Part shown: positions 10,541-60,724 of the stretch, piece by piece
Layout of the letters: every line of letters begins with the position of its first letter
Numbering within the stretch: the first letter of the stretch is position 1
DNA from: a bacterium
GTDB lineage: Bacteria > UBA10199 > 2-02-FULL-50-16 > JAJFLM01
NCBI GenBank assembly: GCA_965216315.1
Contig: CBDCFN010000016.1
Location: 840,733-904,732, forward strand
Direction: 5' to 3'
DNA: 64,000 bases
Program-made: the position numbers and the translations under genes
The notes under the pieces: model-generated
Told to the model about the DNA's origin: nothing
What the model saw: the letters and a program-made list of their open reading frames with translations, nothing else
Database searches by the model: none

Positions 10541-10565
10541 CAACTCTGGGCGATCCCCGTCGATA
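10541..10565 (+). promoter_or_regulatory. Putative sigma-28-like promoter CAAC-N15-TCGATA
   Basis: Recurrent bipartite motif with fixed spacing; -10 resembles the sigma-28 GCCGATAA box. Confidence 0.65.
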
Positions 10566-10580
10566 GAAATGCATCGGGTC

Positions 10581-11462
10581 ATGGTGCTACTCAACCTCCA
10601 TTCAGTGAAATTTGCTCAGGCCGCGGTGCTTGCGGGCAGTTCGGCCGCGCTGACACTTACCCAGGTCATGCACAATATCAATACGCGCCTCGGGCACATC
10701 GAGCGGACCCTGGCCACGGAGCCGAATGTCCTGGCCGTAAAGGGGATCCAGGAGGTGGTTGATAAGCACATGAGCTTTATCGCGGGGTTTGACCGCCAGC
10801 CCATCCATGTAGATGGTGAGATCGAACAAGATATTCGCGTCGATTTAGGCCGTTGGATTGACGGGATGATCCAGTTTAACGAATATTTTAAAGTGCAAGG
10901 TGATCTTGAAAGGGCGCGGTATGATTTCAGTATTATGCGCAAGCCTTTCGATGAGCTCCAAGTCCGTTTGCGCGATGCGGATTTTTCGGACGCGATAGTC
11001 ATAGAAGATGATGACATTGTTGAGGTCGATTCGTCCGAGCATGATATTTATATTTATGAAGAAGGCGATGAGGCGGACTTACATCGGGTTGCGGCGGGTC
11101 GGCGCCATCATCGGGCCGCACGTGCGCGTTATCTTTTTCCGCAAGAAGTGATTGATTTGCGTCAGTATAAAGATCGGGTGACCGTGGAGTATTTAATTGA
11201 AAAAATAATTAATCCACGGTTGGCGCTATTGTCAGAGGGGACGCATTTTATCATTGATGTTGAAGTCGATCGGCAGACACTGCAAAATATGGCGTGGGCC
11301 CTTTGGCAGCGCTATAAATTGTCGGCAACGGCGTTTGAAGATAAGGCACTTATTTTAAGACTTTCCTCACAAGGTCAGCAATGTCGCATCTATATTGACT
11401 CGACAAGTTCGCGTGGCAACTACCTGACGATGACACCAGAGGCCATTCCGATCCCGGAATAG
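10581..11462 (+). CDS. Orphan hypothetical protein, no signal peptide, with acidic linker
   Basis: ~293-aa ORF filling the intergenic space; ATG 10569 lies too close to the putative -10, so ATG 10581 is preferred. Confidence 0.75.
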   Translation: MVLLNLHSVKFAQAAVLAGSSAALTLTQVMHNINTRLGHIERTLATEPNVLAVKGIQEVVDKHMSFIAGFDRQPIHVDGEIEQDIRVDLGRWIDGMIQFNEYFKVQGDLERARYDFSIMRKPFDELQVRLRDADFSDAIVIEDDDIVEVDSSEHDIYIYEEGDEADLHRVAAGRRHHRAARARYLFPQEVIDLRQYKDRVTVEYLIEKIINPRLALLSEGTHFIIDVEVDRQTLQNMAWALWQRYKLSATAFEDKALILRLSSQGQQCRIYIDSTSSRGNYLTMTPEAIPIPE

Positions 11463-11507
11463 GGCTTTTCTTGCGAAATTTCGATAATTGACGCGGCGTT
11501 CAGGTCA

Positions 11508-11532
11508 CAACGGGAGCGAATCTTATCCGATA
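11508..11532 (+). promoter_or_regulatory. Putative sigma-28-like promoter CAAC-N15-CCGATA
   Basis: Exact motif, followed by AGGAGG RBS and GTG at 11551. Confidence 0.7.
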
Positions 11533-11550
11533 AGGGCTTAGGAGGTGACT

Positions 11551-12183
11551 GTGATTCTAACCAGTGGACTATCGCTTTGCGCACTGCCGGCCGCTATCTG
11601 TGCGGCGGCGCCCCCGCAAAATACGACCGTCAATGAGTCAATGAGTGTCGATGATGTACTGAGTGCAACGCAGGCCATTGATGCGGGGGCACCTATTGTT
11701 AGCCGGTCTGTGCGACACTACTATCGATTGCCGGCAGCGATTGATGAAAGCACCGGAATACTCGCCAATGCAATCACGGCCCTGAAAGCCACGCCATCTA
11801 ATGGGGAAGCTATATTGCGCTTTAGCGTTGGATCGGAGACTCTTGAGACTATCGCGGCCCACTTAAGAGATGTCTTTAGTATTCGCGCGGGAGAGATCGC
11901 GACTCCTTTAAAGGCAATGAGTGCCGGTCTCAACAGGTTATACCTGGATGTCATTAATGACTGGGCGGCTGCAAATAAGGATTATCCTGCGGTGTCACGG
12001 TTTCAGGCTCTCGCTCGACAGGTCGGTGATGAATGGGTATTTCATCTGAAGAATCACGAATTACCATCGGAGCCAAAGACGCTCGTCTTGCAGGCCTGGG
12101 GAGCCTATGACAATCAAAAACTGCTCAATGAGATTAGAATCCAGATTGGTGCTGTATCTCAAGACGCAGCGAGCCTCAATTAA
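11551..12183 (+). CDS. Orphan hypothetical protein
   Basis: ~210-aa ORF with AGGAGG (11540-11545) ahead of GTG 11551. Confidence 0.75.
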   Translation: MILTSGLSLCALPAAICAAAPPQNTTVNESMSVDDVLSATQAIDAGAPIVSRSVRHYYRLPAAIDESTGILANAITALKATPSNGEAILRFSVGSETLETIAAHLRDVFSIRAGEIATPLKAMSAGLNRLYLDVINDWAAANKDYPAVSRFQALARQVGDEWVFHLKNHELPSEPKTLVLQAWGAYDNQKLLNEIRIQIGAVSQDAASLN

Positions 12184-17139: not shown

Positions 17140-18600
17140 TTACCAATGCAAAAGACGACGCCACTGGCTTCGTGACGTGGTCATTACAAAATAGAGGATT
17201 AAACTAGGTATTCCCGCGCTGAAAATCACCAGCACAGGACTAAGATCGCGCATGATGTTTTTCAGTAAGTAAATAGCGATTCCGCTGGCAATACCAGCAA
17301 AGATAATTTGAACTGTATGGGCTGTCATGAAGTCTTTACTGTGGAGGCGGAATGTTTGAATGATTGAAATAATCATGATCAATGAATATCCACTGCTGAT
17401 GCTCACGGCAGCACCAAAGACGCCGTAAGCAGGAACAACAATGATTCCAGTGATTGTGACGGCTGCTAAGATGAGCAGCTCAGCCAATAGGAAAAACCGT
17501 GATCGTTGAGTTGTGACGAGAAAGAACATCAGGACAGAAAACGTCGAATACATGAATTGCCCGATCAAAAGAGCCAGGAAAGTATTATAGGACAGCAGTG
17601 AAGCATCCTTGCCGATCATCAGCATAATTTCAGGGCCGAAGGCGCCGAGAAAGAGGGCGAAGGCGATGTTGAGGAGCAATAGCTTTTCCATGGCAAAGCG
17701 CATTTGGCCCCACATTTCGCCTTTATCGTTGCGCAAGTAGGACTCCGAGGTGACTGGCACAAAGATGGGGCCGAAGGCATTTTTAGTCTGCGTGATGACG
17801 CGAGCAATTTGTTTGGCAAAGCCGTAAACGCCGACGACTTTCATCTGAGTTGGAGTTCCTGTTCCCAGGAAGAAAGTAACCAGAAAAATATCAATTCGGT
17901 AGAGCGTCGCATCTACAACTTCGATGATGTACATCGGTAGTGCATAACGAATGATCGCAAAGTAACGTCCCGGGCGGCGCCAGGTACGGAAAACTTCACG
18001 CCAGGAGAAAAACTTGCGAAATGTGAAGGCGCTCAGGATTACGACAATGAGCAGAGCCACGCCTTGGGCGAGGATGACTCCATAGGGCTTAAGCGGCGTT
18101 TTCCAGAATACAAAGAGCAATAGCAGCATCGCCGTCGGTTCAATGGCACTTCGGATGATGGCGTGGTATTTCATCTCCTTGAGGCCCATGGTGGCCTGGA
18201 TCAGCAGGACGCCAACATTATATAGGGGGATGATAGGTGCCAGGATGTACAAGCTGTTTCGAATCAGTGGCGTGTCGACAAAAATATAAGTGTAGAGGAT
18301 GAGAGCGACGGCTCCTAGAGTTGAGACGGTGAGGCAGGCCTTTAAGCTGGAGGCGATCTTTTGATAGAGCTTTCGTGTTTCACCCGTATTTTTAAAATGA
18401 GCGAGCTCAAAGAGCATGCCGTGTTCGAGGCCGAGCATGCCATAGCGGTTTAGAAGTTCGGCAGAGGCCCAGGCGACCGTATAAACTCCGAATAATTCAG
18501 TCCCATAAAGTAGTGCGGCGACAACGAAGAAACCGGTGCGGCTAAAACGGAAGACGTTACCAATGATATTAATTTTAATACCGCGAATCAGTTCCTGCAT
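17140..18600 (-). CDS. Polysaccharide/oligosaccharide flippase (MOP superfamily)
   Basis: 486 aa, many hydrophobic segments, FGVY...GMLGL and VGVYGFA patterns typical of Wzx-like flippases. Confidence 0.7.
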   Translation of the reverse strand: MQELIRGIKINIIGNVFRFSRTGFFVVAALLYGTELFGVYTVAWASAELLNRYGMLGLEHGMLFELAHFKNTGETRKLYQKIASSLKACLTVSTLGAVALILYTYIFVDTPLIRNSLYILAPIIPLYNVGVLLIQATMGLKEMKYHAIIRSAIEPTAMLLLLFVFWKTPLKPYGVILAQGVALLIVVILSAFTFRKFFSWREVFRTWRRPGRYFAIIRYALPMYIIEVVDATLYRIDIFLVTFFLGTGTPTQMKVVGVYGFAKQIARVITQTKNAFGPIFVPVTSESYLRNDKGEMWGQMRFAMEKLLLLNIAFALFLGAFGPEIMLMIGKDASLLSYNTFLALLIGQFMYSTFSVLMFFLVTTQRSRFFLLAELLILAAVTITGIIVVPAYGVFGAAVSISSGYSLIMIISIIQTFRLHSKDFMTAHTVQIIFAGIASGIAIYLLKNIMRDLSPVLVIFSAGIPSLILYFVMTTSRSQWRRLLHW

Positions 18601-18613: not shown

Positions 18614-20551
18614 TTAGGCCTTAGGAGGGGTGACGTCAAGGATGGGCAGATAGACCTCAAAAATTGTCTTGCCCGGTCGACTATCGACACGAACAAAGCC
18701 ACCTCGTTGGCTGACCAAATGGCGCAAATTGGTTAGGCCGAGGCCTAAGTGGCCGGTCGCCGCTGTAAACGAGTAGCGTGGCTTGGTGGTATAAAAAGGG
18801 TCGAAAAGGAGATGCCATTGGTCGCGGGGTATTCCGGGGCCGCTATCTTGGACGACAAACTTAACATATTCGCCGGGCTGAGCCGCTGAAAAGCTCAAGT
18901 TTACTTCCAGCGAAGCGAGCGAATCCGTTGTAATCGTCCGCCGTGAGGTCCGGACCCAGATGCGGCCGCGATCACCTTCTGGGATGGCTTCGTAGGCATT
19001 TTCCAGCATGATGAAGTAAAGCTGCTGAATTTCCTCGACAGGTCCCCTGATTGGAATGGGATTGTCATCCAGCTCAAAGGTAAGATCTGCGGCGTATCGG
19101 ATGCGCTGGGGAACGGCCTCCGGGGTAAGGAGGTCATGTAGATTAAGGGGCGTGCCATCGGTCGATCCGTCTGTCAGGCCCGGGAGCCTGTTGAAGACTG
19201 TCTGAATTTGTTCAAGTTCATGTTTGAGCTCTTCGAGGGTAGTGATTTCAAGTTGTGGCGTGCGCCTCTCCCCTTGACGTCCCAAGGTGTTTATCTTGTG
19301 TTGTAAATCCTCAATGATTTCTAGTAGTGCCCGGCTGACTTGATGCTCGTGGTCGCGAATGACACTTAAGAAGGATTGGGCGCGATGAACTTGTAATAAC
19401 TGTTTCTCAGTTTGAACGCGTATGCCCGCATTTGTATAAACGACCATGGCGTATTGTTTGTCTCCGGCCAAGCTGGGATGAGCCTGAATATCAACTTGGA
19501 CAGTGCTACCATCTTTGCATATCATTTCTGCACCTCTCCAGTGAAACATGCCGGTGTTAACGAACGCGTCGATATGCTCCTTTAATTTAGGGCGAGTGGC
19601 TTCAGGGAAAAATGTTTCAAGAGGACTCTGAATCATCTCGTCATGCGTGTACCCTAAGAGGCGCTCAAGTGATTGGCTGCTCAGGATGGCGCGAGGGATC
19701 AGTTCGTAATCGGCTGTTTCATCAAGCACGAAGATAGATAGCGGTTGGAAGGAATTCTTGAGTAGCTCTTGGTAGCGTTGAATTTCTGCAAGGGCGCGTT
19801 GTCTTTCCGTTTGATCAAATAGGACATAATAGCCGATGCGTCGCCCTTCACGTCCGAATGGAAGGGTGGCGACGTGGATGTCGGCCCATAAATAGCTGCC
19901 GTCTTCTTTAAGGAGACGGACATTTTCAATGAAGCCGACGCCGTTCGCAACAACTCCCATGATGAATTCACCAAAACGGGCAAGGTCTGTCGGATGCACG
20001 TTCTTGGAGATGGTTTCCATCGACGTCAGATAGCCGGCTTCAAAGCCGGATGTACTGTCGTTGGCCGGATTCGTTTCGATTAAGCGAACCATGTCATCGG
20101 GTGTTGCGGCCGCTGGGTTTAATTCAAATACACCCATGGGATGAGGAAAAGGCTTGATGACATCTGACAGTAAAGAGACGATTTTTTCATATTCGGGATC
20201 TGCTGTGCTTTGTTGCGTTGCGTTTCCCCAGCGCCGTTGAAGCAAGCTGTAAAGACGTTTTGTTTCGTCATCGGCTTGTTCGATGCGGGGTGCTAAGCCG
20301 TTGACGACCTGACGCAGAGCCGTCTCAAAACTTACGGTATCATTGTAGGTATCGACGCCGGCATGATTTTCAACAAGAACATGAATGGGTTGGACGATCG
20401 GTGCGAGCACCGCGTCTTGATTCGCGAGTTGAATCGGGTGAGCGAGTCCCCGCAGGAGAACCCCCGCTGAGGTACCGAGAGTCAAACTCGCATCTGTTAC
20501 CACGAGTTGTTGGATGACTCCATTGATGATTGGAATATTTGGTACGACCAC
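18614..20551 (-). CDS. PAS-PAS-HATPase sensor-kinase-like protein with degenerate H-box and orphan N-terminus
   Basis: PAS/PAC motifs (KEDGSYLW, LLGYTHDEM, CKDGSTVQV); ENAYEA, DSGPGI, FDPFYTTK, GLGL boxes; start reassigned to GTG 20551 (AAGGGG RBS, promoter motif upstream). Confidence 0.8.
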   Translation of the reverse strand: MVVPNIPIINGVIQQLVVTDASLTLGTSAGVLLRGLAHPIQLANQDAVLAPIVQPIHVLVENHAGVDTYNDTVSFETALRQVVNGLAPRIEQADDETKRLYSLLQRRWGNATQQSTADPEYEKIVSLLSDVIKPFPHPMGVFELNPAAATPDDMVRLIETNPANDSTSGFEAGYLTSMETISKNVHPTDLARFGEFIMGVVANGVGFIENVRLLKEDGSYLWADIHVATLPFGREGRRIGYYVLFDQTERQRALAEIQRYQELLKNSFQPLSIFVLDETADYELIPRAILSSQSLERLLGYTHDEMIQSPLETFFPEATRPKLKEHIDAFVNTGMFHWRGAEMICKDGSTVQVDIQAHPSLAGDKQYAMVVYTNAGIRVQTEKQLLQVHRAQSFLSVIRDHEHQVSRALLEIIEDLQHKINTLGRQGERRTPQLEITTLEELKHELEQIQTVFNRLPGLTDGSTDGTPLNLHDLLTPEAVPQRIRYAADLTFELDDNPIPIRGPVEEIQQLYFIMLENAYEAIPEGDRGRIWVRTSRRTITTDSLASLEVNLSFSAAQPGEYVKFVVQDSGPGIPRDQWHLLFDPFYTTKPRYSFTAATGHLGLGLTNLRHLVSQRGGFVRVDSRPGKTIFEVYLPILDVTPPKA

Positions 20552-20573: not shown

Positions 20574-20598
20574 CATCGGATAGTTGCCAAAAAGGTTG
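20574..20598 (-). promoter_or_regulatory. Putative sigma-28-like promoter CAAC-N15-CCGATG
   Basis: Reverse strand reads CAAC-ctttttggcaactat-CCGATG, just upstream of GTG 20551. Confidence 0.65.
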
Positions 20599-27400: not shown

Positions 27401-27456
27401 TTTCGCTCGTGATGATTCCCACGCTTTATGCGCTATTGGAGCGGATTCGGAAGTAG
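24401..27456 (+). pseudogene. AcrB/RND-family efflux permease split by a 1-nt frameshift (possibly a sequencing error)
   Basis: YPGASPEDIE, GIMVDDAIIIAEN, GVVVNDTIV, RFRAVVLTS; adding one T at ~25472-25474 restores HTAFWTAFGLPVTILG and joins the two ORFs. Confidence 0.8.
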
Positions 27457-28055: not shown

Positions 28056-28171
28056 TAATAATCCTTTAGTATGGGTTCTTCGCGGAACCAATTATGACCT
28101 GTACTCCTGAAAGTCTATGTTGTAGAGAGCCGGGTGTCAACTGGCTGATTTTCAATGTATCTGGAATAGTT

Positions 28172-29026: not shown

Positions 29027-30205
29027 CTAGATCGTCCATAAGTTCTGCCGACGCAGGGCGTCGACCGCTTCAGTCAGACCGCTGACGCTGAGTGGAAACA
29101 TTTTAAATATCTTGCCGATTTCATCAATCGTGGGGTGGTGCCAATAATGTTCCGGTTCGGGATTGAGCCAGACTGAGAGTGGATAATGCTGATGGAGGCG
29201 TTTGAGCCATTCAATGCCCGGAGTATCCTCATGAGACCAATAGTCGATGTTGCCGCCGGCAAAGAAGAGTTCGTAGGGATTCATGCAGGCGTCCCCAACG
29301 ATGATCACGTAATGTGTTTTGCGGTAGCGGCGAAATAACTCATCAACGGAAATGGCGTTACGCCGATATATGTCGGTATAGACCGAAGAATAAATGCAGT
29401 TATGGAAATAGTAGGAGTGAAAGGCTTTAAAATGGTTGGATGCATGGGCTGCGGAAAATAGAGCTTCGGCCATATGGGCATACATATCCATGCTACCGCC
29501 GGCATCCATCAGAAGAAGTAGCTCTGTTTGGTTCTTGCGAGGTGGGGCAAAGACGAGCTCGATGTCGCCGGCATTACGGCAGGTCTTGTCGATGGTGGCC
29601 TCCATTTGCAGTTCTTCCGGAAGGCCGATACGATCGAGCTTGCGCAACCGTTTGAGAGCCACCTTTAACTGCCGTGTATCGAGGATGCGATCATTGCGGT
29701 AGTTTTTAAAACGCCTTTCTTCAGCTACTTGGACGGCGGAACGCCCGCCACCAGGCCCTCCAATGCGGATTCCGGAAGGGTGGGCCCCTGAATGTCCAAA
29801 AGGTGACGTTCCTCCCGTGCCAATCCAATGGTTGCCGCCATGGTGTTCTTCCAGCTGCTCTTTAAGCCGCTCGAGAAAACGGCGGCGCAATTCTTCCAGG
29901 TCTAGCTTTTCCAGACCGGGAGGTAATTGCGGACGCTGAGCCGGGTCGACCATGCGATTGAGCCAATCTAACAACTCTTCCTTGATGTTAATGGATTCTT
30001 CGCCCTTGAAGCAGACGAGAAAAGCCTGGTCGAAGGCATCGTAGAGCGCTTCCGACTTCACGAGGATAGCGCGCGCTAAGTAATAAAACCGGGTAAGCGA
30101 GGATGCGGCCAAGTCCTGGCTCAGGGCCTCCATAAGAGTGACCCATTCTTGGGTGCCGACGGGAATCTTATGGGCGCGGAGGGTATATAAGAAGGGGATA
30201 AACAT
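29027..30205 (-). CDS. VWA-domain CoxE-like protein
   Basis: WIGTGGTSPFGHSG, LLMDAGGSM MIDAS, YYFHNC, VGDACM, WLNP. Confidence 0.88.
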   Translation of the reverse strand: MFIPFLYTLRAHKIPVGTQEWVTLMEALSQDLAASSLTRFYYLARAILVKSEALYDAFDQAFLVCFKGEESINIKEELLDWLNRMVDPAQRPQLPPGLEKLDLEELRRRFLERLKEQLEEHHGGNHWIGTGGTSPFGHSGAHPSGIRIGGPGGGRSAVQVAEERRFKNYRNDRILDTRQLKVALKRLRKLDRIGLPEELQMEATIDKTCRNAGDIELVFAPPRKNQTELLLLMDAGGSMDMYAHMAEALFSAAHASNHFKAFHSYYFHNCIYSSVYTDIYRRNAISVDELFRRYRKTHYVIIVGDACMNPYELFFAGGNIDYWSHEDTPGIEWLKRLHQHYPLSVWLNPEPEHYWHHPTIDEIGKIFKMFPLSVSGLTEAVDALRRQNLWTI

Positions 30206-31091: not shown

Positions 31092-31116
31092 CAACTTTTA
31101 AACGCCGGCGCCGATA
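31092..31116 (+). promoter_or_regulatory. Putative sigma-28-like promoter CAAC-N15-CCGATA
   Basis: Exact motif (GCCGATAG) a few nt before an orphan ORF. Confidence 0.7.
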
Positions 31117-31123: not shown

Positions 31124-31588
31124 ATGCCCTATATGGCCCATATTCCCCTCATGCAGGGTCTCAGCATCAGTTACGTCGAGGCATTGATGTTTCAGCGTCA
31201 AGCCTATACGGCGGCGGCGCAGGCTAAACTGGGGCCTTTTCTGACGGCCGCCGGCAGTACGCTGGAGCGATTCCAGCGTGATGTCATTCAGGCTCCGGGG
31301 GCTATTTTGATGAAAAAAAGCGATTTGGAGGCGATGACGGCGTTTACGGTTATGACCGCAACACCAGCTGATTTATATGCTTGGAGTGATAGTCTCGGTT
31401 GTGACTGGCTGGCGCAGATTCATTTGAATGCGAGTTTTCACTCCACGGCCCACTATGCGCGCGCCTTTAACGAACGCCATCGATCCGCTGATTTTCATAT
31501 CGCTGAGCCGGAATATTTTCCGTGGATTGATTTTTCGCTACAATTATCGCCGTCAATATTGGTGGGTATCGACGCGGGCCTGCATTAA
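31124..31588 (+). CDS. Orphan hypothetical protein
   Basis: 154-aa ORF (alternative start 31133) behind the motif; no signal peptide. Confidence 0.65.
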   Translation: MPYMAHIPLMQGLSISYVEALMFQRQAYTAAAQAKLGPFLTAAGSTLERFQRDVIQAPGAILMKKSDLEAMTAFTVMTATPADLYAWSDSLGCDWLAQIHLNASFHSTAHYARAFNERHRSADFHIAEPEYFPWIDFSLQLSPSILVGIDAGLH

Positions 31589-31636: not shown

Positions 31637-31712
31637 CAACTAAACAGTCTTCAGTGCCGATATATCATTTTAGATATAATTGGGCTAGACGAGGTATATC
31701 ACTAATGATATA
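31637..31712 (+). promoter_or_regulatory. CAAC-N16-CCGATA motif plus two TATATC...GATATA operator-like palindromes
   Basis: TATATCATTTTAGATATA (31661-31678) and TATATCACTAATGATATA (31695-31712) upstream of the HTH gene. Confidence 0.55.
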
Positions 31713-31721: not shown

Positions 31722-32093
31722 ATGGCAGCACACAAGAGCGAGATAGAATTTGATACATTGTTAGGGACTGCACGTTTTGTGGCGGATTTCCGTATTCCTG
31801 CCGCTGCAAGAGAAGTTATTGAAAAAAGCATCGCAAAGGCTTTTGAGGATTATATTCCCGCGAGTGAAGTGCAGAAGAAAATCAAAAAAGATATTGATTG
31901 GGTTGATACGCCCAGAGGGGCACTGGTTGTATTTATGACGGCTCAAGGATTGACTCAAAAGAAACTCGCTAAAAAAACCGGGATTAATCAACCGAATATA
32001 TCTGCGATGGTTAATGGGCGCCGCCCTATTACAGTGAAGACCGCGAAGTTGTTAGGGAAGGCGTTTGGGGTGAGTCATAAGTTGTTTCTTTGA
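31722..32093 (+). CDS. XRE/HigA-like helix-turn-helix protein
   Basis: GLTQKKLAKKTGINQPNISAMVNGRRPITVKTAKLLGKAF. Confidence 0.85.
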   Translation: MAAHKSEIEFDTLLGTARFVADFRIPAAAREVIEKSIAKAFEDYIPASEVQKKIKKDIDWVDTPRGALVVFMTAQGLTQKKLAKKTGINQPNISAMVNGRRPITVKTAKLLGKAFGVSHKLFL

Positions 32094-38980: not shown

Positions 38981-38996
38981 TTAAACGAGGTGATAG

Positions 38997-40481: not shown

Positions 40482-40486
40482 ATCTT

Positions 40487-41011
40487 ATGTTTAGACTACG
40501 TGTTGCTACGGTATTTTTTGTAGGATTTGTGCTGGCAGGTTTGTTGCTATTAATTTCATCTCAAACGCGCGCGATCGAGCTGGATCCTAATGTTGAGATT
40601 GATGTAAGGGGGATGCGTCTGGAGATGTTCCCTTGTTCTAAATGTCATAATCTAATCGGAAAAAGTGAAGGGCGTAAAGAAGCGGCGCATCGCAATGTCC
40701 ATGTCCGTCACGGGGAGATCAATAAAAATTGTCTCAATTGTCACAATGGCGATAATATGGATACCTTGCATTTACTGAATTCAAAGAATGCCCTGCCATT
40801 CGAGAAGTCTTATCAAATTTGTGGGCAGTGCCATGGCAATATCTTGAATGAGTGGAATCTTGGAATTCATGGTCAGCAGACGGGGAGTTGGAACGGCAAA
40901 AAACTGCGGCAAACCTGCTCGGCATGCCACAATCCGCACCAACCAAAATTTAAGGACATGAAGCCTCTTCCGGCGCCGCAACATCCGCATGAGAGGAGGG
41001 CAAGACGTTGA
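40487..41011 (+). CDS. Tetraheme cytochrome c
   Basis: CSKCH, CLNCH, CGQCH, CSACH; N-terminal signal/anchor. Confidence 0.88.
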   Translation: MFRLRVATVFFVGFVLAGLLLLISSQTRAIELDPNVEIDVRGMRLEMFPCSKCHNLIGKSEGRKEAAHRNVHVRHGEINKNCLNCHNGDNMDTLHLLNSKNALPFEKSYQICGQCHGNILNEWNLGIHGQQTGSWNGKKLRQTCSACHNPHQPKFKDMKPLPAPQHPHERRARR

Positions 41012-41952: not shown

Positions 41953-41960
41953 GAAGAGCT

Positions 41961-47873: not shown

Positions 47874-48268
47874 TTTATGGGAGGGATAAGATAATGAAGG
47901 TCCGCATAGACCGAACTCTGGCCATAAACCCCTAGCTTGGCGAGAGTGCTGAGCCCCCAGAACCCCTTGCGCATCAGACCGATTGGCGAATTGTAAAATT
48001 GATGGAGCAGGGCCTCCTGTCGTGCGGGATTAAGACCCTTAAAGAGGTGGCCGGTCATGCATAATGACCAGATATCGACAATAGTGAAAAAAAGGCTTAG
48101 TTTTTTCAGTTGTTGTGGTGGCTGTGAACGGAGAATGCGGTTGATGAGCTCAAGTGATTGTTTTCGCTGAGCGGCGGTAAAGTGCCGAGCTCGCGGAACG
48201 AGGCAGGCCTGCAGTGCTTCAAAACGTCGGGCGCGCTTTCCCTGTAAAAAGGGAGGTTTTGTTGCCAC
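47870..48268 (-). CDS. Small GMC-partner protein (gluconate-2-dehydrogenase subunit-3-like)
   Basis: Overlaps the GMC start; resembles the N-terminal domain of the GMC at 53066. Confidence 0.6.
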   Translation of the reverse strand: MATKPPFLQGKRARRFEALQACLVPRARHFTAAQRKQSLELINRILRSQPPQQLKKLSLFFTIVDIWSLCMTGHLFKGLNPARQEALLHQFYNSPIGLMRKGFWGLSTLAKLGVYGQSSVYADLHYLIPPIK

Positions 48269-48997: not shown

Positions 48998-49022
48998 CAA
49001 CTTTTGAGGGGGCAGACCGAAG
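48998..49022 (+). promoter_or_regulatory. Variant sigma-28-like motif CAAC-N15-CCGAAG
   Basis: Same -35 and spacing, weaker -10. Confidence 0.4.
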
Positions 49023-49087: not shown

Positions 49088-49741
49088 ATGATTTCAAAGC
49101 TCAAAGAACCAGTGAATGGCCTGACTCACTTGGCAGGTCTTTTCTTGGCAATCGCGGGTTTCTGCCTCTTGCTGATCGCTGCGGCAGAATACGGGACGAA
49201 GTGGCATCTGATCGCATTTGCGGTCTTCGGGACGAGTCTTATCCTCATGTACACATCGAGTTCACTCTATCATCTTCTGCCGCTCTCCGAGCGCGGGACG
49301 CGCATGCTCAAGCGGGTTGACCATATGATGATTTTTATTTTGATCGCAGGGACGTATACACCGATTTGCTTGGTTCCCTTGCGTGGCGTCTGGGGCTGGA
49401 CGCTTTTCGGGGTCGTTTGGGGGATGGCTGTGCTCGGGTTTGTGATTAAGCTGTTTTGGATCCACGCCCCACGTTGGTTTTCAACCGCCATCTATTTGGC
49501 CATGGGGTGGGTTTGCGTCTTGGCAATTTATCCCATGGTTGAAAAGCTTCCCATCGGTGCGCTGGCATGGCTTGCCGCGGGTGGGCTCATTTATAGTGTG
49601 GGGGCTATCATTTACGGAACAAAGTGGCCCGATCCTTTTCCGAAGGTCTTCGGCTTTCATGAGATTTGGCATTTATTTGTTCTCGGTGGCAGTTTTTGTC
49701 ATTTTTGGCTGATGTACTCATACGTGACTTATATAGGATAA
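49088..49741 (+). CDS. Hemolysin III / PAQR family membrane protein
   Basis: EPVNGLTH, SSLYH, DHMMIFILIAGTYTP, HEIWHLFV. Confidence 0.93.
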   Translation: MISKLKEPVNGLTHLAGLFLAIAGFCLLLIAAAEYGTKWHLIAFAVFGTSLILMYTSSSLYHLLPLSERGTRMLKRVDHMMIFILIAGTYTPICLVPLRGVWGWTLFGVVWGMAVLGFVIKLFWIHAPRWFSTAIYLAMGWVCVLAIYPMVEKLPIGALAWLAAGGLIYSVGAIIYGTKWPDPFPKVFGFHEIWHLFVLGGSFCHFWLMYSYVTYIG

Positions 49742-49746
49742 CAATA

Positions 49747-50802
49747 ATGGCACAGGCACAGACGATACCCGCAGATTTTCTTGAAATGAATGACTTGATG
49801 CAGGTCTTCTTGGAACGGGTGCAGGCCGATATGGCGGCATTGAGTGAAAGTTCCGCGGAGGCCTTCCAAGGGCTTAAGGAAAACGTGCTTAAGTCGTGGG
49901 AAAAACTTCCTACAGTGATCAATGATTATAAGCGGTCGATGCAAAACATGCCGTGGGAACTGCGACAACGTCGTTTTATCAAGGGGCTTTCCAAAGATAT
50001 TGAAGCCTTTGAGCAGGATGTCAGGCGTTATGTCGCTGAATTAAAGGAAGCAAAGCTAGCGGATGTCTACCGCAAAGCTCTGTACTCGCGGACACGACGC
50101 CTGGCTGAACGCATTGCTGAGTTGGAAAATCACAACCTGTTTCAAAAGTTCTTAAAGGGCGAAGTGATTCTGGCCAGTAAGAAATCCATTCAGTGGGGCC
50201 GCAAGTTTGCGCATGCGGCCTTGGGGATGGCGTTTCTCTATATTTTTATCTATTCGGGATTTCCGCAAACAGTTATCTGGTCGATAGCGGGTGCTTATTT
50301 GATTTGGTCCTTTTCGCTGGAGACGGCACGTCACATGAACCCTCGGATCAATGAGTGGGTGTGTAAGGCCTTTCGACCGATAATGCGAGAACGCGAGAAG
50401 ACGCGGGTTAACTCGGCCATCTTCTACAGTATCTCGATGGCGATTGTGTATTTCGGTTTTCCGACCGAAGTGACCGTGTTGACGATGCTGTTTATTGCAT
50501 TGGGCGACCCCGCCGCGGGTATTGTCGGTATCTACTGGGGGCGGAAAAAACTGACGCAGCATTCAAGTCTCGAAGGCTCCTTGGCATGCTTTGCTGTTTG
50601 CGCCCTTTCGGCCGCTATCTGTGGGGCTTTTCTTTTTGAGGTGTCACTCGGCTTTTTTCCGCTCGTTCTTTTCGCCGGGCTCTGTGGGCTCGTTGGGGCG
50701 GTCGCGGAGACCTCCTTTAAAAAATTCGATGATAATCTTGTCATGCCGCTCCTATCGGCGCCGGCCCTCTGGGTGTTGATGCAGGTTTTCGGTATTATCT
50801 AG
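49747..50802 (+). CDS. Phytol/dolichol (polyprenol) kinase-family membrane protein with soluble N-terminal extension
   Basis: RKFAH, LGDPAAGIVG..WGR, SLEGSLA, DDNLVMP. Confidence 0.8.
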   Translation: MAQAQTIPADFLEMNDLMQVFLERVQADMAALSESSAEAFQGLKENVLKSWEKLPTVINDYKRSMQNMPWELRQRRFIKGLSKDIEAFEQDVRRYVAELKEAKLADVYRKALYSRTRRLAERIAELENHNLFQKFLKGEVILASKKSIQWGRKFAHAALGMAFLYIFIYSGFPQTVIWSIAGAYLIWSFSLETARHMNPRINEWVCKAFRPIMREREKTRVNSAIFYSISMAIVYFGFPTEVTVLTMLFIALGDPAAGIVGIYWGRKKLTQHSSLEGSLACFAVCALSAAICGAFLFEVSLGFFPLVLFAGLCGLVGAVAETSFKKFDDNLVMPLLSAPALWVLMQVFGII

Positions 50803-58727: not shown

Positions 58728-58750
58728 GGCTCTCCTCCTTGAGATTGTGA

Positions 58751-58784
58751 GCTGAATGGCTTAGCCGGCGTTAAGCCATTCAGC
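58751..58784. repeat. Perfect 13-bp intra-operon inverted repeat
   Basis: GCTGAATGGCTTA-N8-TAAGCCATTCAGC, no U-tract. Confidence 0.7.
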
Positions 58785-58792
58785 GTATGTTA

Positions 58793-59608
58793 CTATGGAA
58801 CAAGTTGCCCCTGCGCTAAGGAGTTTTCTTGCTCCGCTTCGTCTAATTCATCATCATTGTCACTGTCTTCAAACAAGTCCGAAGATAGTTCCAAATTCTT
58901 AATGATCTGCTCCAATAATATTTGATTGTGGCCTTCTTCGAGCAGAATGATGGGCTGGCCATCGGGCCCCAGGCTGATTTCAACATCAGGGGCATCGAGG
59001 TCGACATTGTTAAACCATTGATCCAGATCGAAGGCGATAAAGACTTGTTCAGTCCCGTTTTGAGAACTTAATTCAAAACCGGTGTTTTCATTTTCAAGTT
59101 CAAATTCTTCGTCCTTATTAAGCGTTACCTGAAAGGGGGTGCCGTCGCCGCGTTCACCGCTAATGACAACGCTCTTGCCGGCGAGCGGGCTCGAAACGCT
59201 TTCTTCCAGCTTGGCGAGACGGAGTTCAATGCGGCAGTAGACGTCCTCCGGAATGCCTACCCCGACTAAGTTGGATTCATTGGTCGGATCGAGTAGGTCG
59301 ACGATAAAAGGTCCGTCGAAGCGAATCTCTCCATTATCATCGAGAGTCTCGTCTTCACAGACTTCGATGGGCCGGAAACGAATCCGCTCCAGCACGATGT
59401 CGGCCTGGGTCACATTTAAAGTTCCAACGATCAAGTGGGGCAATAGGACATTTTGGAGCGTGGAATTTTGATAGGCGATCACGCGCAGGTTAATCTTACT
59501 GGGATTGCCTGTCTCCGTACCTCCTTCCAGGGAAGATGTTTGGTTGCCGCAGGCCAGGCAGCCGATTAAGCCCAGCGTCCAAAATAGTTTGCTGAATAAA
59601 TTTTTCAT
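58793..59608 (-). CDS. Acidic lipoprotein with GGTETGN motif
   Basis: LAC lipobox followed by GGTETGNP; overlaps the TIGR02147 stop. Confidence 0.8.
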   Translation of the reverse strand: MKNLFSKLFWTLGLIGCLACGNQTSSLEGGTETGNPSKINLRVIAYQNSTLQNVLLPHLIVGTLNVTQADIVLERIRFRPIEVCEDETLDDNGEIRFDGPFIVDLLDPTNESNLVGVGIPEDVYCRIELRLAKLEESVSSPLAGKSVVISGERGDGTPFQVTLNKDEEFELENENTGFELSSQNGTEQVFIAFDLDQWFNNVDLDAPDVEISLGPDGQPIILLEEGHNQILLEQIIKNLELSSDLFEDSDNDDELDEAEQENSLAQGQLVP

Positions 59609-60459
59609 CGCTTCGCTTTCCCCGGTTCCAGTGTAAGTGGAAACATTTGAATATTTATTTGAACGACGTCTTCCGTCGCCTCATTTGTGGCAATCATTTT
59701 TAAGATTTCTTGTCGGAATTCTTGGATTTTGTCCTTCAATTCCGGGAGCCTTTTCTTGCTGACGCCTAAGGTGAGGGCGCTGATATCTCTTTTTTCGGCC
59801 GGCAATCTATCTAGTACGAATTTGCTCAGGTCGAGCAGATTGAGATGATAGTTAAATACACTGAGCGATTTGACTTCGGGCCCTGTGGAGGCGAGCGAAC
59901 TCACTTGACGCCACTGTCCATCGGGTGCCTTCTCGATAAGAGAAAGCTTTTCCAGGAGTGCGATGGATTTATCGACTTGCTCTGGTGAAACGGCCGGATA
60001 GAGTCTTTCACTGATCCATTCCGCTGTTCCGTCAAAGTCCTTTGCGACGACCAACTCGCGGATGACGGTATGATACCAGGTGTTATAATAATCATACTGC
60101 GCCTGGTCGATAGGTTTTAATTCCTTCAGTTTGCGGGTTTTGAGGAGGGCGCGAAAGTGTTCATCCTTCTCCTGATGGCTTTCCGCTTGATTGAATAAGA
60201 CGAGGTGGTGAAAAAATTCGCGTTCTTGCTTATTCAATTTAAGTCCAGAGGCAAACTTTTCGATACTTTCAATCGTGAGATTGCGGTCGCCATCCATGAC
60301 CAGCTTAAAAATATTGGAGGAGGTAAAACCGGCGCGTTTGGAAAAGGTCCGAAACGAAAATGCGGCGCGCGTTCCTTTGGCTTGTTGATACCAATCCCGC
60401 AGGAATTTACGGTAATCCCGGTAGCTGAAGAGGTCGATTGCTTTGGGTGGCTTGGCCAT
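59605..60459 (-). CDS. TIGR02147 family protein (HTH + DUF4423-like)
   Basis: YRDYRKFL...FSFRTFSKRAGF.S...V..G.RNL, WYHTVIREL, RDISALTL, QINIQMFPL. Confidence 0.88.
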   Translation of the reverse strand: MAKPPKAIDLFSYRDYRKFLRDWYQQAKGTRAAFSFRTFSKRAGFTSSNIFKLVMDGDRNLTIESIEKFASGLKLNKQEREFFHHLVLFNQAESHQEKDEHFRALLKTRKLKELKPIDQAQYDYYNTWYHTVIRELVVAKDFDGTAEWISERLYPAVSPEQVDKSIALLEKLSLIEKAPDGQWRQVSSLASTGPEVKSLSVFNYHLNLLDLSKFVLDRLPAEKRDISALTLGVSKKRLPELKDKIQEFRQEILKMIATNEATEDVVQINIQMFPLTLEPGKAKR

Positions 60460-60699
60460 GAATCAAAGCTACGCCGTCTCACGGAGTTCAGCAAGCTATT
60501 TGTATATTTTCAGCATACTTGAGTATGCATTTATTATTATAATTTATTGTAATAATTGAATAATTTATATGGTTTTAGTTAAATAGGATAGATTAAAGTA
60601 TGCAACCCGCCTCTGAGCTGGGCCCTGTAATCATTGGGGAATTACGCAGCTCCGCCTAGGGTTTTCCAATTTTCGCAAATTCCGCGCCCGAATTCCCAA

Positions 60700-60724
60700 C
60701 AACAAAAGCCCTTATTTTCCGATA
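60700..60724 (+). promoter_or_regulatory. Putative sigma-28-like promoter CAAC-N15-CCGATA
   Basis: Exact motif ~50 nt before an orphan ORF. Confidence 0.7.

Follow-up and report, generated by a model that had tools for sequence, protein, structure and literature searches.

A sigma-28-like promoter motif ahead of scattered orphan genes and its probable link to a type III secretion sigma factor

Seven copies of a two-box motif, CAAC followed after 15 or 16 bases by CCGATA or a near variant, lie ahead of genes in the 64-kb stretch of bacterial DNA analysed here (the window). They raise the question of whether the motif is a promoter, which factor would read it and what the genes behind it have in common.

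Motif sites in the window and across the genome

All seven copies reported by the first-pass annotation were found again, at the same positions and on the same strands. They are given here with the genes behind them and with two further exact matches that the annotation had missed; distances are counted from the end of the hexamer to the first start of a long ORF, and scores come from a weight matrix derived from the genome.

10541..10565 (+): promoter-like site CAAC-N15-TCGATA; score 15.2; first start at 3 nt, next ATG at 15 nt
10569..11462 (+): target ORF, 297 aa (293 aa from the second ATG); no Pfam family, even at E<=1
11508..11532 (+): promoter-like site CAAC-N15-CCGATAA; score 17.9; GTG start 12 nt downstream
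11545..12183 (+): target ORF, 212 aa; no Pfam family
20574..20598 (-): promoter-like site CAAC-N15-CCGATG; score 14.7; GTG start 22 nt downstream
18614..20551 (-): target sensor kinase-like gene; PAS and HATPase_c domains, without a HisKA match
17140-18600 (-): Pfam-less ORF directly after the kinase gene, with which it may be co-transcribed
29344..29368 (+): exact match, antisense inside the VWA_CoxE gene 29027-30205 (-); score 13.6
31092..31116 (+): CAAC-N15-CCGATA, the strongest site of the window; score 24.9; ATG 7 nt downstream
31124..31588 (+): target ORFan, 154 aa; no Pfam family; homologue not found in 30 relatives
31637..31662 (+): site CAAC-N16-CCGATA; score 19.8; ATG 59 nt downstream
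31722..32093 (+): target regulator gene, 123 aa, HTH_3 (Xre-type)
48998..49022 (+): candidate site CAAC-N15-CCGAAG; score 11.1; ATG 65 nt downstream
49088..49741 (+): possible target, HlyIII-family membrane protein, 217 aa
50753..50778 (-): exact N16 match, antisense in the 3' end of the membrane-protein ORF 49666-50802 (+); score 14.0
60700..60724 (+): site CAAC-N15-CCGATAA; score 21.5; ATG 48 nt downstream
60773..61531 (+): target ORFan, 252 aa; no Pfam family; no homologue in 30 relatives; charge-poor N-terminus

Exact CAAC-N15/16-CCGATA occurs six times in the window against a mean expectation of 0.26 (100 shuffles, none of which reached six), and the looser CAAC-N16-CGAWR occurs 13 times against 2.82 expected (shuffle maximum 8); chance is thus excluded as the source of the sites. 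By score, four of the seven are strong (31092, 60700, 31637 and 11508), two are intermediate (10541 and 20574) and one is weak (48998). The weak site is a double variant, with two variant positions in CCGAAG, and the score-bin estimate for promoter-placed matches gives it slightly better than even odds of being real; the HlyIII protein behind it would be atypical, since no target scoring >=16 is polytopic. At 10541 the first ATG follows by only 3 nt, so that translation more probably begins at the ATG 15 nt away, and the mRNA from the 31092 site is probably leaderless, given its ATG at 7 nt. A low-GC ORF (32168-32998) comes after the HTH_3 gene. Both matches that had been missed are probably background, the one at 50753 being conceivably an antisense promoter; they fit the in-gene background seen genome-wide (16 of 86 exact matches), which is similar to that of off-spacing controls. 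The first-pass annotation had also stated that all four host-GC orphans lacking a signal peptide carry the motif. As a rule about orphans this holds only roughly: the motif is absent from other Pfam-less ORFs of the window that have no obvious signal peptide (28094-29020, 47870-48268 and 63097-63585).

Across the 2.96-Mb genome there are 86 exact CAAC-N15/16-CCGATA matches, of which 65 are promoter-positioned and oriented: 56 are intergenic and face a gene within 300 nt, and nine more fall inside maximal ORF calls, within their first 150 nt. Controls with spacers of N10-13 and N18-21 yielded 21-25 matches each, only 0-5 of them promoter-like, and TAAA-N15/16-CCGATA was promoter-like in none of 18 cases. 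Resolved by spacer, promoter-like matches make up 50/60 at N15, 15/26 at N16, 12/18 at N17 and 1/4 at N14. Enrichment in promoter position and orientation, on which the earlier interpretation depended, is thus found genome-wide and is confined to spacers of N15-17. The motif tolerates only a few single-base variants; the TCGATA form of the -10 box was promoter-like in 32/66 matches versus 2/20 at control spacing, and the CCGATG class in 18/41 versus 2/23. In the 50 N15 seed sites, CAAC is preceded by G 32 times and by A 16 times and is followed by three positions with T at 26, 37 and 30 of the sites respectively, while CCGATA is followed by A 35 times; the consensus is (G/A)CAACtTT-N11-(A/G)CCGATAA, which may also be written GCAACTTT-N11-RCCGATAA.

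With the weight matrix, 140 of 186 matches scoring >=16 were promoter-like, as against 45 of 337 at scores of 8-10, and we put the promoter total at about 140 high-scoring copies, or about 210 by estimate. Start codons lie 6-11 nt after the hexamer for 37 of 135 targets and in no case at 14-15 nt; ATG accounts for 37 of the 46 starts within 13 nt, a spacing from which about a quarter of the transcripts would be leaderless. Paralogue families hold only 30 of the 135 targets, so copied upstream regions are not the cause of the enrichment. Taken as sequence, the motif looks like a promoter read by a flagellar-type sigma factor.

A sigma factor gene within a type III secretion cluster

The most likely reader, judged from genomic comparison, is the product of the following gene, hereafter the T3S-type sigma.

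G000:C16:350511-351410: T3S-type sigma gene, a sigma-28-family paralogue; outside the window

Among curated families the protein matches FliA_WhiG best, and among solved structures WhiG and FliA, which are also the best matches of its sigma-4 domain alone, ahead of ECF sigmas; its score of 133 bits lies under the curated FliA_WhiG cut-off of 189.6. The gene is flanked by a YscJ gene on one side and by FliG_C-like, FliH/SctL, ATPase and YscO genes on the other, where the cluster continues with FliK-like, FliM/N-like, FliO and FliP/Q/R genes; of 45 loci, 33-41 keep this synteny on the downstream side of the sigma gene and 32 on the upstream side. The export gate scores 648.6 bits as SctV versus 468 bits as FlhA, and flagellin and rod genes were found nowhere in the genome. 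The export genes that the first-pass annotation had suggested looking for are present, and by gene content the cluster is one for non-flagellar type III secretion. Neither a secretin inside the cluster (the genome's two secretin-family matches lie elsewhere) nor a needle subunit was identified, which weakens the case for export past the inner membrane.

Motif and sigma occur together across the phylum sample. The stringent form GCAAC-N15-CCGATAA was present in all 81 genomes of this sample, at 2-66 copies versus 0-2 for the reversed-pattern control, and the T3S-type sigma in 80 of the 81, including all 61 of high quality. A relative belonging to a different family has 23 exact sites, 20 of them in non-coding sequence with an ORF starting within 250 nt. 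Five of five flagellated relatives encode a canonical FliA (215-240 bits) within 3 kb of an FHIPEP (FlhA-type) gene and carry the T3S-type sigma as well (129-147 bits), and five of five non-flagellated relatives have the T3S-type sigma only. None of 13 flagellin upstream regions from relatives contained the motif or even the CCGATA hexamer. By these comparisons the T3S-type sigma is a paralogue and not the flagellar FliA. Moreover, 23 of 38 loci in relatives have a site scoring >=13, nearly always with an N17 spacer, at a distance of 0.8-1.5 kb upstream of the sigma gene, compared with 6 of 38 on the control strand, and a site occupies the same place in the genome studied here.

Just upstream of the sigma gene lies a gene for a 119-aa protein predicted to bind the sigma as FlgM does. 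The genome has no match to the FlgM Pfam family. Complex prediction gave the pair a score of 0.67, and the best of three controls scored 0.00; of 80 solved complexes 58 reach this mark, as do 2 of 110 mismatched pairs. The alignments were self-made, one averaging only 21% identity, and the score may in part reflect known FliA-FlgM structures retained by the predictor. At least 65% of contacts recur between runs, with partner pLDDT of at least 53, and in the model partner residues 74-114 touch the sigma at residues 133-186 and 210-260, the recognition helix among them. We regard it as an even chance that this is a FlgM-like anti-sigma that may couple expression to secretion competence.

Targets of the motif and their possible roles

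The targets are strongly enriched for proteins without a Pfam family, as their first description as orphans implied: 96 of 135 (71%) lack one, versus 11 of 53 (21%) in a background made up of the genes of the single 64-kb window (odds ratio 9.4, p=3.6e-10). The regulon is not made up of orphans alone: hydrolases and regulators belong to it too, as do some genes of housekeeping type (BioB, RtcB, a DEAD-box helicase, glutamate dehydrogenase and a PFOR subunit). According to gene calls, signal-peptide tests and membrane-helix tests that were all crude custom scripts, 28 of 135 targets genome-wide have a signal-peptide or lipoprotein-like N-terminus, and none is polytopic versus 238 of 2398 background genes. 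Given these Sec-type and housekeeping-like members, the regulon is not simply a list of secretion substrates. Targets lacking a signal peptide have charge-poor N-termini (a mean of 2.9 charged residues at positions 2-25 versus 5.5 in the background, p=1e-18) enriched in Ser, Thr, Asn and Ala, with no charge difference at residues 61-84. Just past the secretion cluster, three of five consecutive Pfam-less genes carry the motif.

We consider it fairly probable (about 0.72, from sequence comparisons) that the motif is a promoter read by the T3S-type sigma of the non-flagellar cluster and serves late and cargo genes. The alternative sigma factor proposed at first sight is supported by motif placement, the FliA/WhiG-like sigma, the export genes and the orphan targets alike. 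The T3S-type sigma would act as a late-gene sigma, as FliA does for flagella, turning on late genes adjacent to the secretion cluster together with a scattered cargo set; the weaker N17 copy ahead of its own operon may provide positive feedback, and the 119-aa protein may tie expression to secretion competence. Whether many of the targets without signal peptides are secretion substrates we would put at even odds; the remainder (Sec-type lipoproteins, murein hydrolases, protease and regulators) would belong to the same attack or host-contact programme. As the likely promoter read by a sigma encoded with the secretion system, the motif probably marks that system's late genes and cargo, and it precedes roughly 140-210 mostly species-unique genes in an uncultured bacterial phylum.

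It is also possible, though less likely, that promoter and sigma are correctly assigned but the targets are not secretion substrates, the regulon being a general late, attack or dispersal phase and the sigma's location merely reflecting co-regulation of the machine with that life stage. The Bdellovibrio FliA regulon offers a precedent: 92 of 140 attack-phase promoters carry TTAAG-N16-CCGATA and govern many non-flagellar genes (PMC3627812). The 28 Sec- or lipoprotein-type targets would suit such a programme, as would a phage-type lysozyme, two SLT transglycosylases, a subtilase, alpha-2-macroglobulin, a GGDEF protein, a kinase and HTH/DUF4423 regulators, and a target GC content slightly above the genome mean (0.538 versus 0.510). 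Against it stand the distinctive N-termini followed by ordinary residues 61-84, the lack of polytopic targets, the motif-bearing genes immediately flanking the cluster, and the absence from 30 relatives of all three tested cargo genes or families although machine and sigma are conserved. These sequence features argue for export and do not prove it.

Other readers and comparison with sigma-28 systems

Far less probable is a reader other than the T3S-type sigma, namely either of the two ECF sigmas or the one RpoH-like sigma that the genome encodes. Typical -35 boxes of ECF-type promoters contain AAC, and the motif recalls them in its -35 core AAC and its AAC-N16-CG layout; in alignment, the S-R-L-H of the T3S-type sigma corresponds to (S/T)-R-(I/L)-(H/F) in ECF sigmas. 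However, homologues of the two ECF sigmas occur in only 10 and 8 of 61 phylum genomes (E<=1e-25), the sigma-4 domain of the T3S-type sigma is not ECF-like, and the CCGATAA -10 box is a sigma-28 hallmark. Neither ECF gene has a good motif upstream, unlike the T3S-type sigma operon, and an ECF reader was set aside on these phyletic and contextual grounds. That the motif is no promoter at all, but a dispersed repeat, transcription-factor binding site or compositional artefact, is hardly credible: one gene island does have about ten of the top sites sharing extended upstream sequence with short inverted arms, conceivably a repeat or a site for an additional regulator, but this reading is disfavoured by the two-box structure with its strict N15-17 spacer (permuted or re-spaced controls are all depleted), the fixed orientation 6-100 nt from start codons, the few paralogous targets and the conservation in 81/81 genomes.

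A promoter read by the T3S-type sigma can be set beside known sigma-28 systems. Relative to the E. coli consensus TAAAGTTT-n11-GCCGATAA (PMC2859248), the motif has an equal -10 box and equal spacing and differs at three of eight -35 positions, and we regard its -35 box as a recoded form of that of sigma-28. The sigma itself, as the first-pass annotation had anticipated, is FliA/WhiG-like with an altered region 4.2: its helix LSKSW(T/V)SRLH, unchanged in all 44 homologues, whose identity is otherwise 52-87%, has Arg in place of the Gln that canonical FliA presents at a base-contacting position. In P. aeruginosa sigma-28 the -35 box is contacted by S224 and Q228, and R97 and D66 work at the -10 region or close to it (PMC12784957); aligned with that protein, the T3S-type sigma keeps the Ser, R97 and D66, and differs by Q228->R, R225->W and E223->K.

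A conserved bipartite promoter

The first-pass annotation had reported seven copies of a two-box signal, CAAC-N15/16-CCGATA or a close variant, in front of orphan genes in the window, and all seven were confirmed at their coordinates and on their strands. Exact matching added two copies that it had overlooked, both intragenic. The sites are listed with the scores obtained from the two-block weight matrix with spacer terms that we used for scoring sites genome-wide.

Motif sites in the window, with matrix scores
31092-31116 (+), promoter-like site: 24.9
60700-60724 (+), promoter-like site: 21.5
31637-31662 (+), promoter-like site with N16 spacer: 19.8
11508-11532 (+), promoter-like site: 17.9
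10541-10565 (+), promoter-like site with TCGATA as its -10 box: 15.2
20574-20598 (-), promoter-like site with CCGATG as its -10 box: 14.7
50753-50778 (-), intragenic exact match: 14.0
29344-29368 (+), intragenic exact match: 13.6
48998-49022 (+), weak candidate site with CCGAAG as its -10 box: 11.1

The exact motif occurs 6 times in the 64-kb window, against a mean of 0.26 in 100 dinucleotide-preserving shuffles, none of which reached 6; the looser pattern CAAC-N16-CGAWR occurs 13 times (2.82 expected, shuffle maximum 8). Across the assembly (2.96 Mb in 16 contigs, 98% complete), in which a crude greedy longest-ORF script called 2533 ORFs, we counted 86 exact matches: 56 are intergenic and face a gene within 300 nt, 9 lie in the first 150 nt of a maximal ORF call whose start is probably over-extended, 5 are otherwise intergenic and 16 are intragenic. 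The enrichment in promoter position and orientation proposed in the first-pass annotation is thereby borne out (56 + 9 of the 86), since the same boxes at control spacings of N10-13 or N18-21 gave 21-25 matches with only 0-5 promoter-like. Scrambled boxes gave 4-13 matches genome-wide, of which 0-2 were promoter-like. The canonical sigma-28 promoter TAAA-N15/16-CCGATA was rejected, as 0 of its 18 matches in the genome are promoter-like.

The spacer and both boxes are tightly constrained. Promoter-like matches account for 50 of 60 at N15, 15 of 26 at N16, 12 of 18 at N17 and 1 of 4 at N14. A single-base scan showed that CAAC is nearly obligatory in the -35 box, the sole tolerated variant being AAAC (11/29 promoter-like), and that the -10 box tolerates only TCGATA (32/66), GCGATA (19/34), CCGAAA (16/28) and CCGATG (18/41); the degenerate window sites 10541 and 20574 belong to these tolerated classes. 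Among 50 N15 seed sites, the base preceding CAAC is G in 32 and A in 16, the three bases after it are T in 26, 37 and 30, the base preceding CCGATA is A in 19 and G in 20, and the base after it is A in 35. These flanking counts give the consensus c(G/A)CAACtTT-N11-(A/G)CCGATAA. The published E. coli sigma-28 consensus is given as TAAAGTTT-n11-GCCGATAA (PMC2859248). The spacing and the -10 octamer are identical, GCCGATAA being matched by (A/G)CCGATAA, and the -35 octamer is instead GCAACTTT, which departs from TAAAGTTT at positions 1, 2 and 5.

At matrix scores of at least 16 there are 186 matches in the genome, 140 of them promoter-like, compared with 45 of 337 at scores of 8-10; taking this low-score bin as background, we estimate that there are about 210 real promoters. 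The 140 high-scoring sites lead to 136 distinct ORF calls and, once a spurious 1-codon call is dropped, to 135 targets. Because BLASTP paralogue families take in only 30 of these 135, the enrichment is not explained by copied upstream regions. About a quarter of the targets look leaderless: the start codon falls 6-11 nt after the hexamer in 37 of the 135 and at 14-15 nt in none. Starts lie within 13 nt of the hexamer in 46 targets, 37 of which begin with ATG, and a Shine-Dalgarno-like word precedes 12 of these 46 versus 51 of the 89 with longer leaders. In the P. aeruginosa fliC promoter the -10 octamer is described as occupying positions -15 to -8 (PMC12784957), so that a start codon 8 nt after CCGATA would be +1. 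The window example of this probably leaderless class is site 31092, with an ATG at 7 nt.

The promoter is conserved throughout the phylum. The related records are metagenome-assembled genomes labelled Deltaproteobacteria, UBA10199 and similar, and one relative, nXX_bin1, is assigned to phylum UBA10199 in a preprint (bioRxiv 10.1101/2020.04.27.061960). A stringent 12-base version, GCAAC-N15-CCGATAA, was present in 31 of 31 sampled relatives including the genome under study (5-52 copies; reversed control 0-2) and in 81 of 81 genomes of a phylum sample spanning 23 families, that of the window among them (2-66 copies; reversed control 0-2). A relative belonging to another family has 23 exact sites, of which 20 were non-coding and had an ORF of at least 60 aa within the next 250 nt. 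We regard the motif as probably lineage-specific on account of the reversed-pattern controls and the published consensus sequences of other bacteria.

A sigma-28 paralogue in a type III secretion cluster

Five sigma-70-family genes were found in the genome: one RpoD-like, one RpoH-like, two of the ECF type and a 299-aa ORF (275 aa in the public gene call) at 350511-351410 of the contig that carries the window. The last is the FliA/WhiG homologue with an altered region 4.2 that the first-pass annotation had suggested looking for, and we refer to it as the T3S-type sigma. Its best NCBIfam model is FliA_WhiG (TIGR02479), covered over positions 1-222 of 224 at 133 bits, below the curated cut-off of 189.6. 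Its best solved relatives are WhiG-type and FliA proteins, and its sigma-4 domain, searched alone, found FliA and WhiG best rather than ECF sigmas. Annotation pipelines label the protein 'FliA' or 'sigma-70 family'. Searched at E<=1e-40, it was detected in 80 of the 81 phylum genomes, including all 61 of high quality; the one genome without a match is 73% complete.

In the open complex of P. aeruginosa sigma-28, S224 and Q228 are reported to make base-specific contacts in the 5' part of the -35 element, and D66 and R97 to act at the -10 and extended -10 elements (PMC12784957). Residues were matched through a structure-relative alignment, with the chain numbering offset by 5. In the T3S-type sigma, D66, R97 and S224 are conserved and Q228 is replaced by Arg, R225 by Trp and E223 by Lys. 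All 44 sequences compared (the protein itself and 43 loci), otherwise 52-87% identical, carry the resulting helix, LSKSW(T/V)SRLH. By manual alignment, the changed helix residues appear to sit at the changed -35 bases, which would fit co-variation of protein and DNA.

This gene is embedded in a type III secretion cluster. YscJ comes first, then a 151-aa ORF, a 119-aa ORF, the sigma, a 162-aa ORF and a FliG_C-like protein, followed by FliH/SctL, the ATPase, YscO, a FliK/SctP-like protein, a FliM-like protein, FliN, FliO and FliP/Q/R; an FHIPEP gene and FHA/YscD-like genes lie about 9 kb upstream, and FlhB/SctU is encoded elsewhere in the genome. Export genes of the flagellar/T3SS kind that the first-pass annotation had envisaged are present: the core export apparatus and sorting platform of a T3SS (SctV, SctU, SctR/S/T, SctN, SctL, SctQ and SctJ) are all represented by Pfam matches (FHIPEP, Bac_export_1, Bac_export_2, Bac_export_3, FliP, T3SS ATPase, FliH/SctL, FliMN_C, YscJ_FliF and YscO). 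Flagellin_N, Flg_bb_rod and FlgM have no Pfam match in the genome. The gate protein scores higher as SctV (648.6 bits) than as FlhA (468 bits), the ATPase about equally as the flagellar and injectisome kinds, and the FliG_C, FliM and FliO matches are flagellum-like. Two secretin-family matches both lie far from the cluster, and no needle or translocon family was found among the scanned cluster ORFs. Relaxed scans (Pfam E<=1, NCBIfam E<=0.01) of small cluster ORFs, T3SS-adjacent targets and window ORFans returned nothing informative.

The arrangement is shared by relatives. Downstream of the sigma in 45 related loci we found FliG-like in 41, FliH in 38, the ATPase in 37 and YscO in 33, with YscJ upstream in 32 of the 45; the misses fall mostly at contig ends. 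A further copy of the promoter may serve the operon of the sigma itself: the interval between YscJ and the 151-aa ORF, some 1 kb 5' of the sigma, contains CAAC-N17-GCGATAA (score 13.9), so placed that autoregulation is possible. Among 38 relatives' loci with enough sequence upstream of the sigma, 23 have a plus-strand site scoring at least 13 at 0.8-1.5 kb upstream, versus 6 of 38 on the control strand, and nearly all of these upstream sites are N17. We rejected an ECF or RpoH-like sigma as the reader of the motif because of distribution across genomes and gene context: homologues of the two ECF genes occur in only 10 and 8 of the 61 high-quality phylum genomes at E<=1e-25, and neither ECF gene in this genome has a comparable upstream motif site.

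A candidate anti-sigma factor is the ORF immediately 5' of the sigma, 119 aa here and about 100-125 aa in relatives, which is poorly conserved (mean 21% identity) and of low complexity in its N-terminal half. We predicted its complex with sigma residues 45-275 from custom alignments and obtained a median score of 0.67, the best of 3 controls reaching 0.00. In calibration, 58 of 80 solved complexes reach that mark, as do 2 of 110 mismatched pairs; these counts hold only roughly given the custom alignments, and part of the score may reflect likeness to the FliA-FlgM complexes already solved. Contact agreement between runs was at least 65% and the pLDDT of the partner at least 53; the predicted contacts join residues 74-114 of the 119-aa protein to two stretches of the sigma, residues 133-186 and 210-260, the recognition helix among them. 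The model supports, at the level of a prediction, binding of the 119-aa protein to the T3S-type sigma. The 162-aa ORF directly 3' of the sigma (L013:4408-4896, + strand, in the extracted sigma locus) overlaps the sigma stop codon, is kept in 40 related loci and has a conserved C-terminal block with no Pfam match. By a likeness of its C terminus it may be an inner-rod-like (SctI-type) T3SS part, and on that ground we set it aside as an anti-sigma in favour of the 119-aa protein.

Some members of the phylum also have a flagellar FliA. Flagellin genes occur in 11 of the 81 phylum genomes (10 of the 61 high-quality ones), and 5 of 5 flagellated relatives carry two FliA-type genes: a canonical FliA at 215-240 bits, above the 189.6 cut-off and 1.4-2.7 kb from an FHIPEP (FlhA-type) gene, and the T3S-type sigma at 129-147 bits. 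All 5 of 5 non-flagellated relatives have the T3S-type sigma only (133-144 bits). A second FHIPEP gene is also present in the flagellated relatives, in 2 of 5 no more than about 10 kb from the T3S-type sigma, and the one adjoining canonical FliA presumably belongs to a separate flagellar apparatus. In the canonical paralogues the helix reads (S/T)ESRI(S/C)Q, and identity to the T3S-type partner is 23-25% (3 usable sequences of 5).

In the 400 nt upstream of flagellin genes the motif was found in 0 of 13 cases, the best score being 9.2, reached once, and the CCGATA hexamer was likewise found in 0 of 13. Inspection of the same flagellin upstream regions (L149-L161) suggested another pattern, xAAGxTx-N10-13-CCGT(T/C), located 69-99 nt 5' of the start of the Flagellin_N match in 8 of 13 versus 1 of 13 on the control strand, counts to be read as a lead only because the pattern was derived by eye after viewing the sequences. 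Its -35 box would be of canonical type and its -10 box non-canonical and, if this reading holds, the two sigma-28 paralogues would have diverged in opposite boxes.

Targets of the promoter

The regulon is large and largely Pfam-less. At E<=1e-5, 96 of the 135 targets (71%; 45/70 and 51/65 in the two sets scanned) have no Pfam family, compared with 11 of 53 window ORFs without a strong site (21%), a difference with a Fisher odds ratio of 9.4 (p=3.6e-10) for which a single 64-kb window is the background. The families that do occur are listed below.

Pfam families among the targets
Cell-wall and degradative: phage lysozyme, SLT (two), LysM, subtilase, Exo_endo_phos
Secreted and surface: CAP, alpha-2-macroglobulin, RTX repeats, FGE-sulfatase (three), pentapeptide repeats
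Signalling and regulation: FHA/YscD, GGDEF, HTH_3, DUF4423 (three)
Housekeeping (few): BioB, RtcB, DEAD-box helicase, glutamate dehydrogenase, PFOR subunit, class-V aminotransferase

By simple scripts of our own, a signal-peptide or lipoprotein-like N terminus is present in 28 of 135 targets versus 673 of 2398 background genes, and 0 of 135 targets are polytopic versus 238 of 2398. Residues 2-25 of the 107 signal-less targets are poor in charge (mean 2.9 versus 5.5 in 1725 background proteins, Mann-Whitney p=1e-18) and enriched in Ser, Thr, Asn, Ala and Gly, while residues 61-84 hardly differ from background (5.33 versus 5.68, p=0.14). Type III secretion signals are generally N-terminal stretches of this composition, poor in charge and rich in Ser, Thr, Asn, Ala and Gly. 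The target N termini resemble such signals, a resemblance in composition that is suggestive of export and not proof of it. Just 3' of the T3SS cluster, 3 of five consecutive Pfam-less genes bear the motif; one T3SS-adjacent target, of 491 aa, gave no usable match in the ESM Atlas.

The sigma and the promoter are conserved phylum-wide, while three tested target families were not found in the 30 relatives searched: the window ORFans at 31124-31588 and 60773-61531 had no homologue there at E<=1e-5, and a five-member family with the best promoters had none at E<=1e-8. An AlphaFold2 model of this paralogue family, from a 5-row alignment, reached a mean pLDDT of only 46.7. Outside the window, an island of about 45 kb (2161715-2208403 of the same contig; loci L114-L117) has some 20 Pfam-less genes in a row, every one behind a top-scoring promoter of its own (scores 24-30). 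It is home to two five-member paralogue families, one of them without a homologue in the 30 relatives. Nine or ten of its promoters have a common extended upstream sequence in which short inverted arms, GCGAA ... TTCGC, bracket the -35 box; these could be the site of a second regulator.

Several individual loci deserve mention. One motif-driven target of 998 aa (L073:1-2997, - strand; 91474-94470 of the contig) is an unusual fusion of a ResIII/DEAD helicase with Sigma70_r4 (58 bits). Another, of 860 aa (L088:1-2583, - strand; 825991-828573), has RTX and TSP3 repeats and a first dozen residues that we take to be reminiscent of the flagellin N terminus; a flagellin origin is unsupported, as Flagellin_N matches neither there nor anywhere in the genome. 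Between T3SS-adjacent genes, TGGCAT-N5-TTGCT (L079:4005-4030, at about 364600 of the contig), some 70 nt 5' of a 460-aa Pfam-less gene, looks like a sigma-54 promoter, and a different sigma may therefore serve at least one T3SS-adjacent Pfam-less gene.

Further observations concern the window itself:

59605-60459 (-): member of a small DUF4423 family, with no site scoring at least 10; three motif-driven copies lie elsewhere, including at loci L073 and L078
32168-32998 (+): Pfam-less ORF of 36% GC (genome about 51%), directly after a motif-driven HTH_3 gene; its 2-kb bin is the GC minimum of the window (0.44), and it may be foreign DNA co-transcribed with the HTH_3 regulator
24401-25507 and 25525-27456 (+): AcrB-type RND transporter split into two adjacent ORFs covering positions 1-353 and 379-1020 of the ACR_tran model; a frameshift, a stop codon or an assembly error could be the cause
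37526-43184 (+): two multihaem cytochromes, a small cytochrome, a 4Fe-4S protein and an NrfD-like membrane subunit, with ResB- and CcsA-like cytochrome c assembly genes upstream on the opposite strand; no gene of the cytochrome cluster has the motif

The proposed programme and known systems

We propose, tentatively and with a probability of roughly one in three, that the UBA10199 phylum as a whole possesses a non-flagellar T3SS run on flagellar logic, in which a sigma-28 paralogue is held by a secreted FlgM-like anti-sigma and its -35 element has been recoded through helix changes, without cross-talk to the true FliA that some members have kept. The motif would then label, in the sequence itself, all of the cargo of an early-type T3SS, possibly a needleless one, that attacks other cells; this cargo would turn over fast, differ largely between species and amount to roughly 100-200 genes per genome. 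Apart from that broader reading, the mechanism that we consider likely is one in which the T3S-type sigma reads the motif promoter and serves the T3SS as its late-gene sigma; the 119-aa protein might restrain it until secretion competence is reached, and the N17 promoter may exert positive feedback on the sigma operon. Many signal-less cargo proteins might exit through the T3SS, and the co-regulated Sec-dependent hydrolases and lipoproteins would serve the same programme of contact, attack or host interaction. Where members have both regulons, the recoded -35 box would insulate this one from that of the flagellar FliA.

To our knowledge, the regulators described for non-flagellar T3SSs are AraC-type activators, sigma-54 activators or the ECF sigma HrpL. 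If our reading is true, this T3SS, with its retained FliA-type sigma and perhaps also a checkpoint of the FlgM type, would represent a regulatory 'living intermediate' bearing on the flagellum-to-injectisome exaptation scenario set out in PMC3459982. Two sigma-28 paralogues that appear to read different boxes within one phylum would also be a natural case of sigma-promoter co-change, with the helix change mapping to a residue already known to contact -35 DNA. From sequence alone, the motif would point to the probable late genes and cargo of an uncultured phylum and, by analogy, could lead to the effectors, still unknown, of T3SSs of the needleless, Myxococcus-like kind. Our searches of open-access papers and bioRxiv found no published work on the promoter, regulon or T3SS link of this sigma; in that searchable literature UBA10199 appears only in metagenome-assembled genome catalogues, magnetosome studies and community surveys, PMC11484514 and a soil preprint being examples.

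The closest functional precedents are the FliA/FlgM hierarchy, Bdellovibrio FliA, HrpL with its hrp box and the chlamydial sigma-28 late genes. As in the FliA/FlgM systems of E. coli, Salmonella and Pseudomonas, the sigma here is a group-3 factor with FliA and WhiG as its best matches; its promoter retains the CCGATAA -10 box and the inter-box distance, its gene is linked to a type III export apparatus, a copy of its own promoter precedes its operon, and a small, partly disordered neighbour is predicted to wrap sigma domains 3 and 4. It differs in a recognition helix with K, W and R where the canonical one has E, R and Q, in a score below the curated family cut-off, in a genome where no flagellin or rod gene was found and in a regulon that is far larger and mostly Pfam-less.

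A comparable case is Chlamydia, described as non-motile and T3SS-bearing, with a sigma-28 that drives late developmental genes. The chlamydial sigma-28 regulon is small, with canonical-type promoters.

The -10 box of HrpL promoters is CCAC-type, whereas the sigma here is FliA/WhiG-like with a sigma-28 -10 box. As described for Pseudomonas syringae and Erwinia, the HrpL/hrp-box system also pairs a T3SS-encoded alternative sigma with a distinctive bipartite promoter, and hrp promoters precede T3SS genes, scattered fast-evolving effectors and some non-effectors, so that the repertoire can be read from them (PMC4544800). In that account HrpL belongs to the ECF (group 4) sigmas and its -35 box is GGAACC (PMC4544800); membership of this type is rejected here, since both the sigma and its sigma-4 domain match FliA/WhiG and the promoter is not GGAACC-type.

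In the account of the Bdellovibrio bacteriovorus attack phase, TTAAG-N16-CCGATA is found in 92 of 140 promoters (PMC3627812). Its FliA regulon resembles ours in the CCGATA -10 box, in a size of the order of 140 promoters and in many non-flagellar, uncharacterised, surface and hydrolytic proteins (PMC3627812), and this FliA is the nearest precedent for a FliA-type sigma as global programme regulator. Bdellovibrio has a TTAAG-type -35 box, a flagellum and a single FliA (PMC3627812), whereas the sigma described here is a paralogue linked to a T3SS, its -35 box is recoded and no flagellin gene was found.

With respect to the machine itself, the word 'sigma' is absent from the texts of PMC3459982 and PMC12075869, which deal with the Myxococcus 'needleless' T3SS* and the early-branching Myxo-type non-flagellar T3SS; the Myxococcus system is described as acting in bacterial predation, with effectors still unknown. 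Like the systems presented there, ours combines an export apparatus and a sorting platform with no secretin in the cluster; it also has no recognised needle or translocon among the scanned cluster ORFs, FHA/YscD-like proteins nearby and, for its part, FliG_C-like, FliM-like and FliO matches. By this comparison, the closest machine may be the needleless, secretin-less Myxo-type T3SS.
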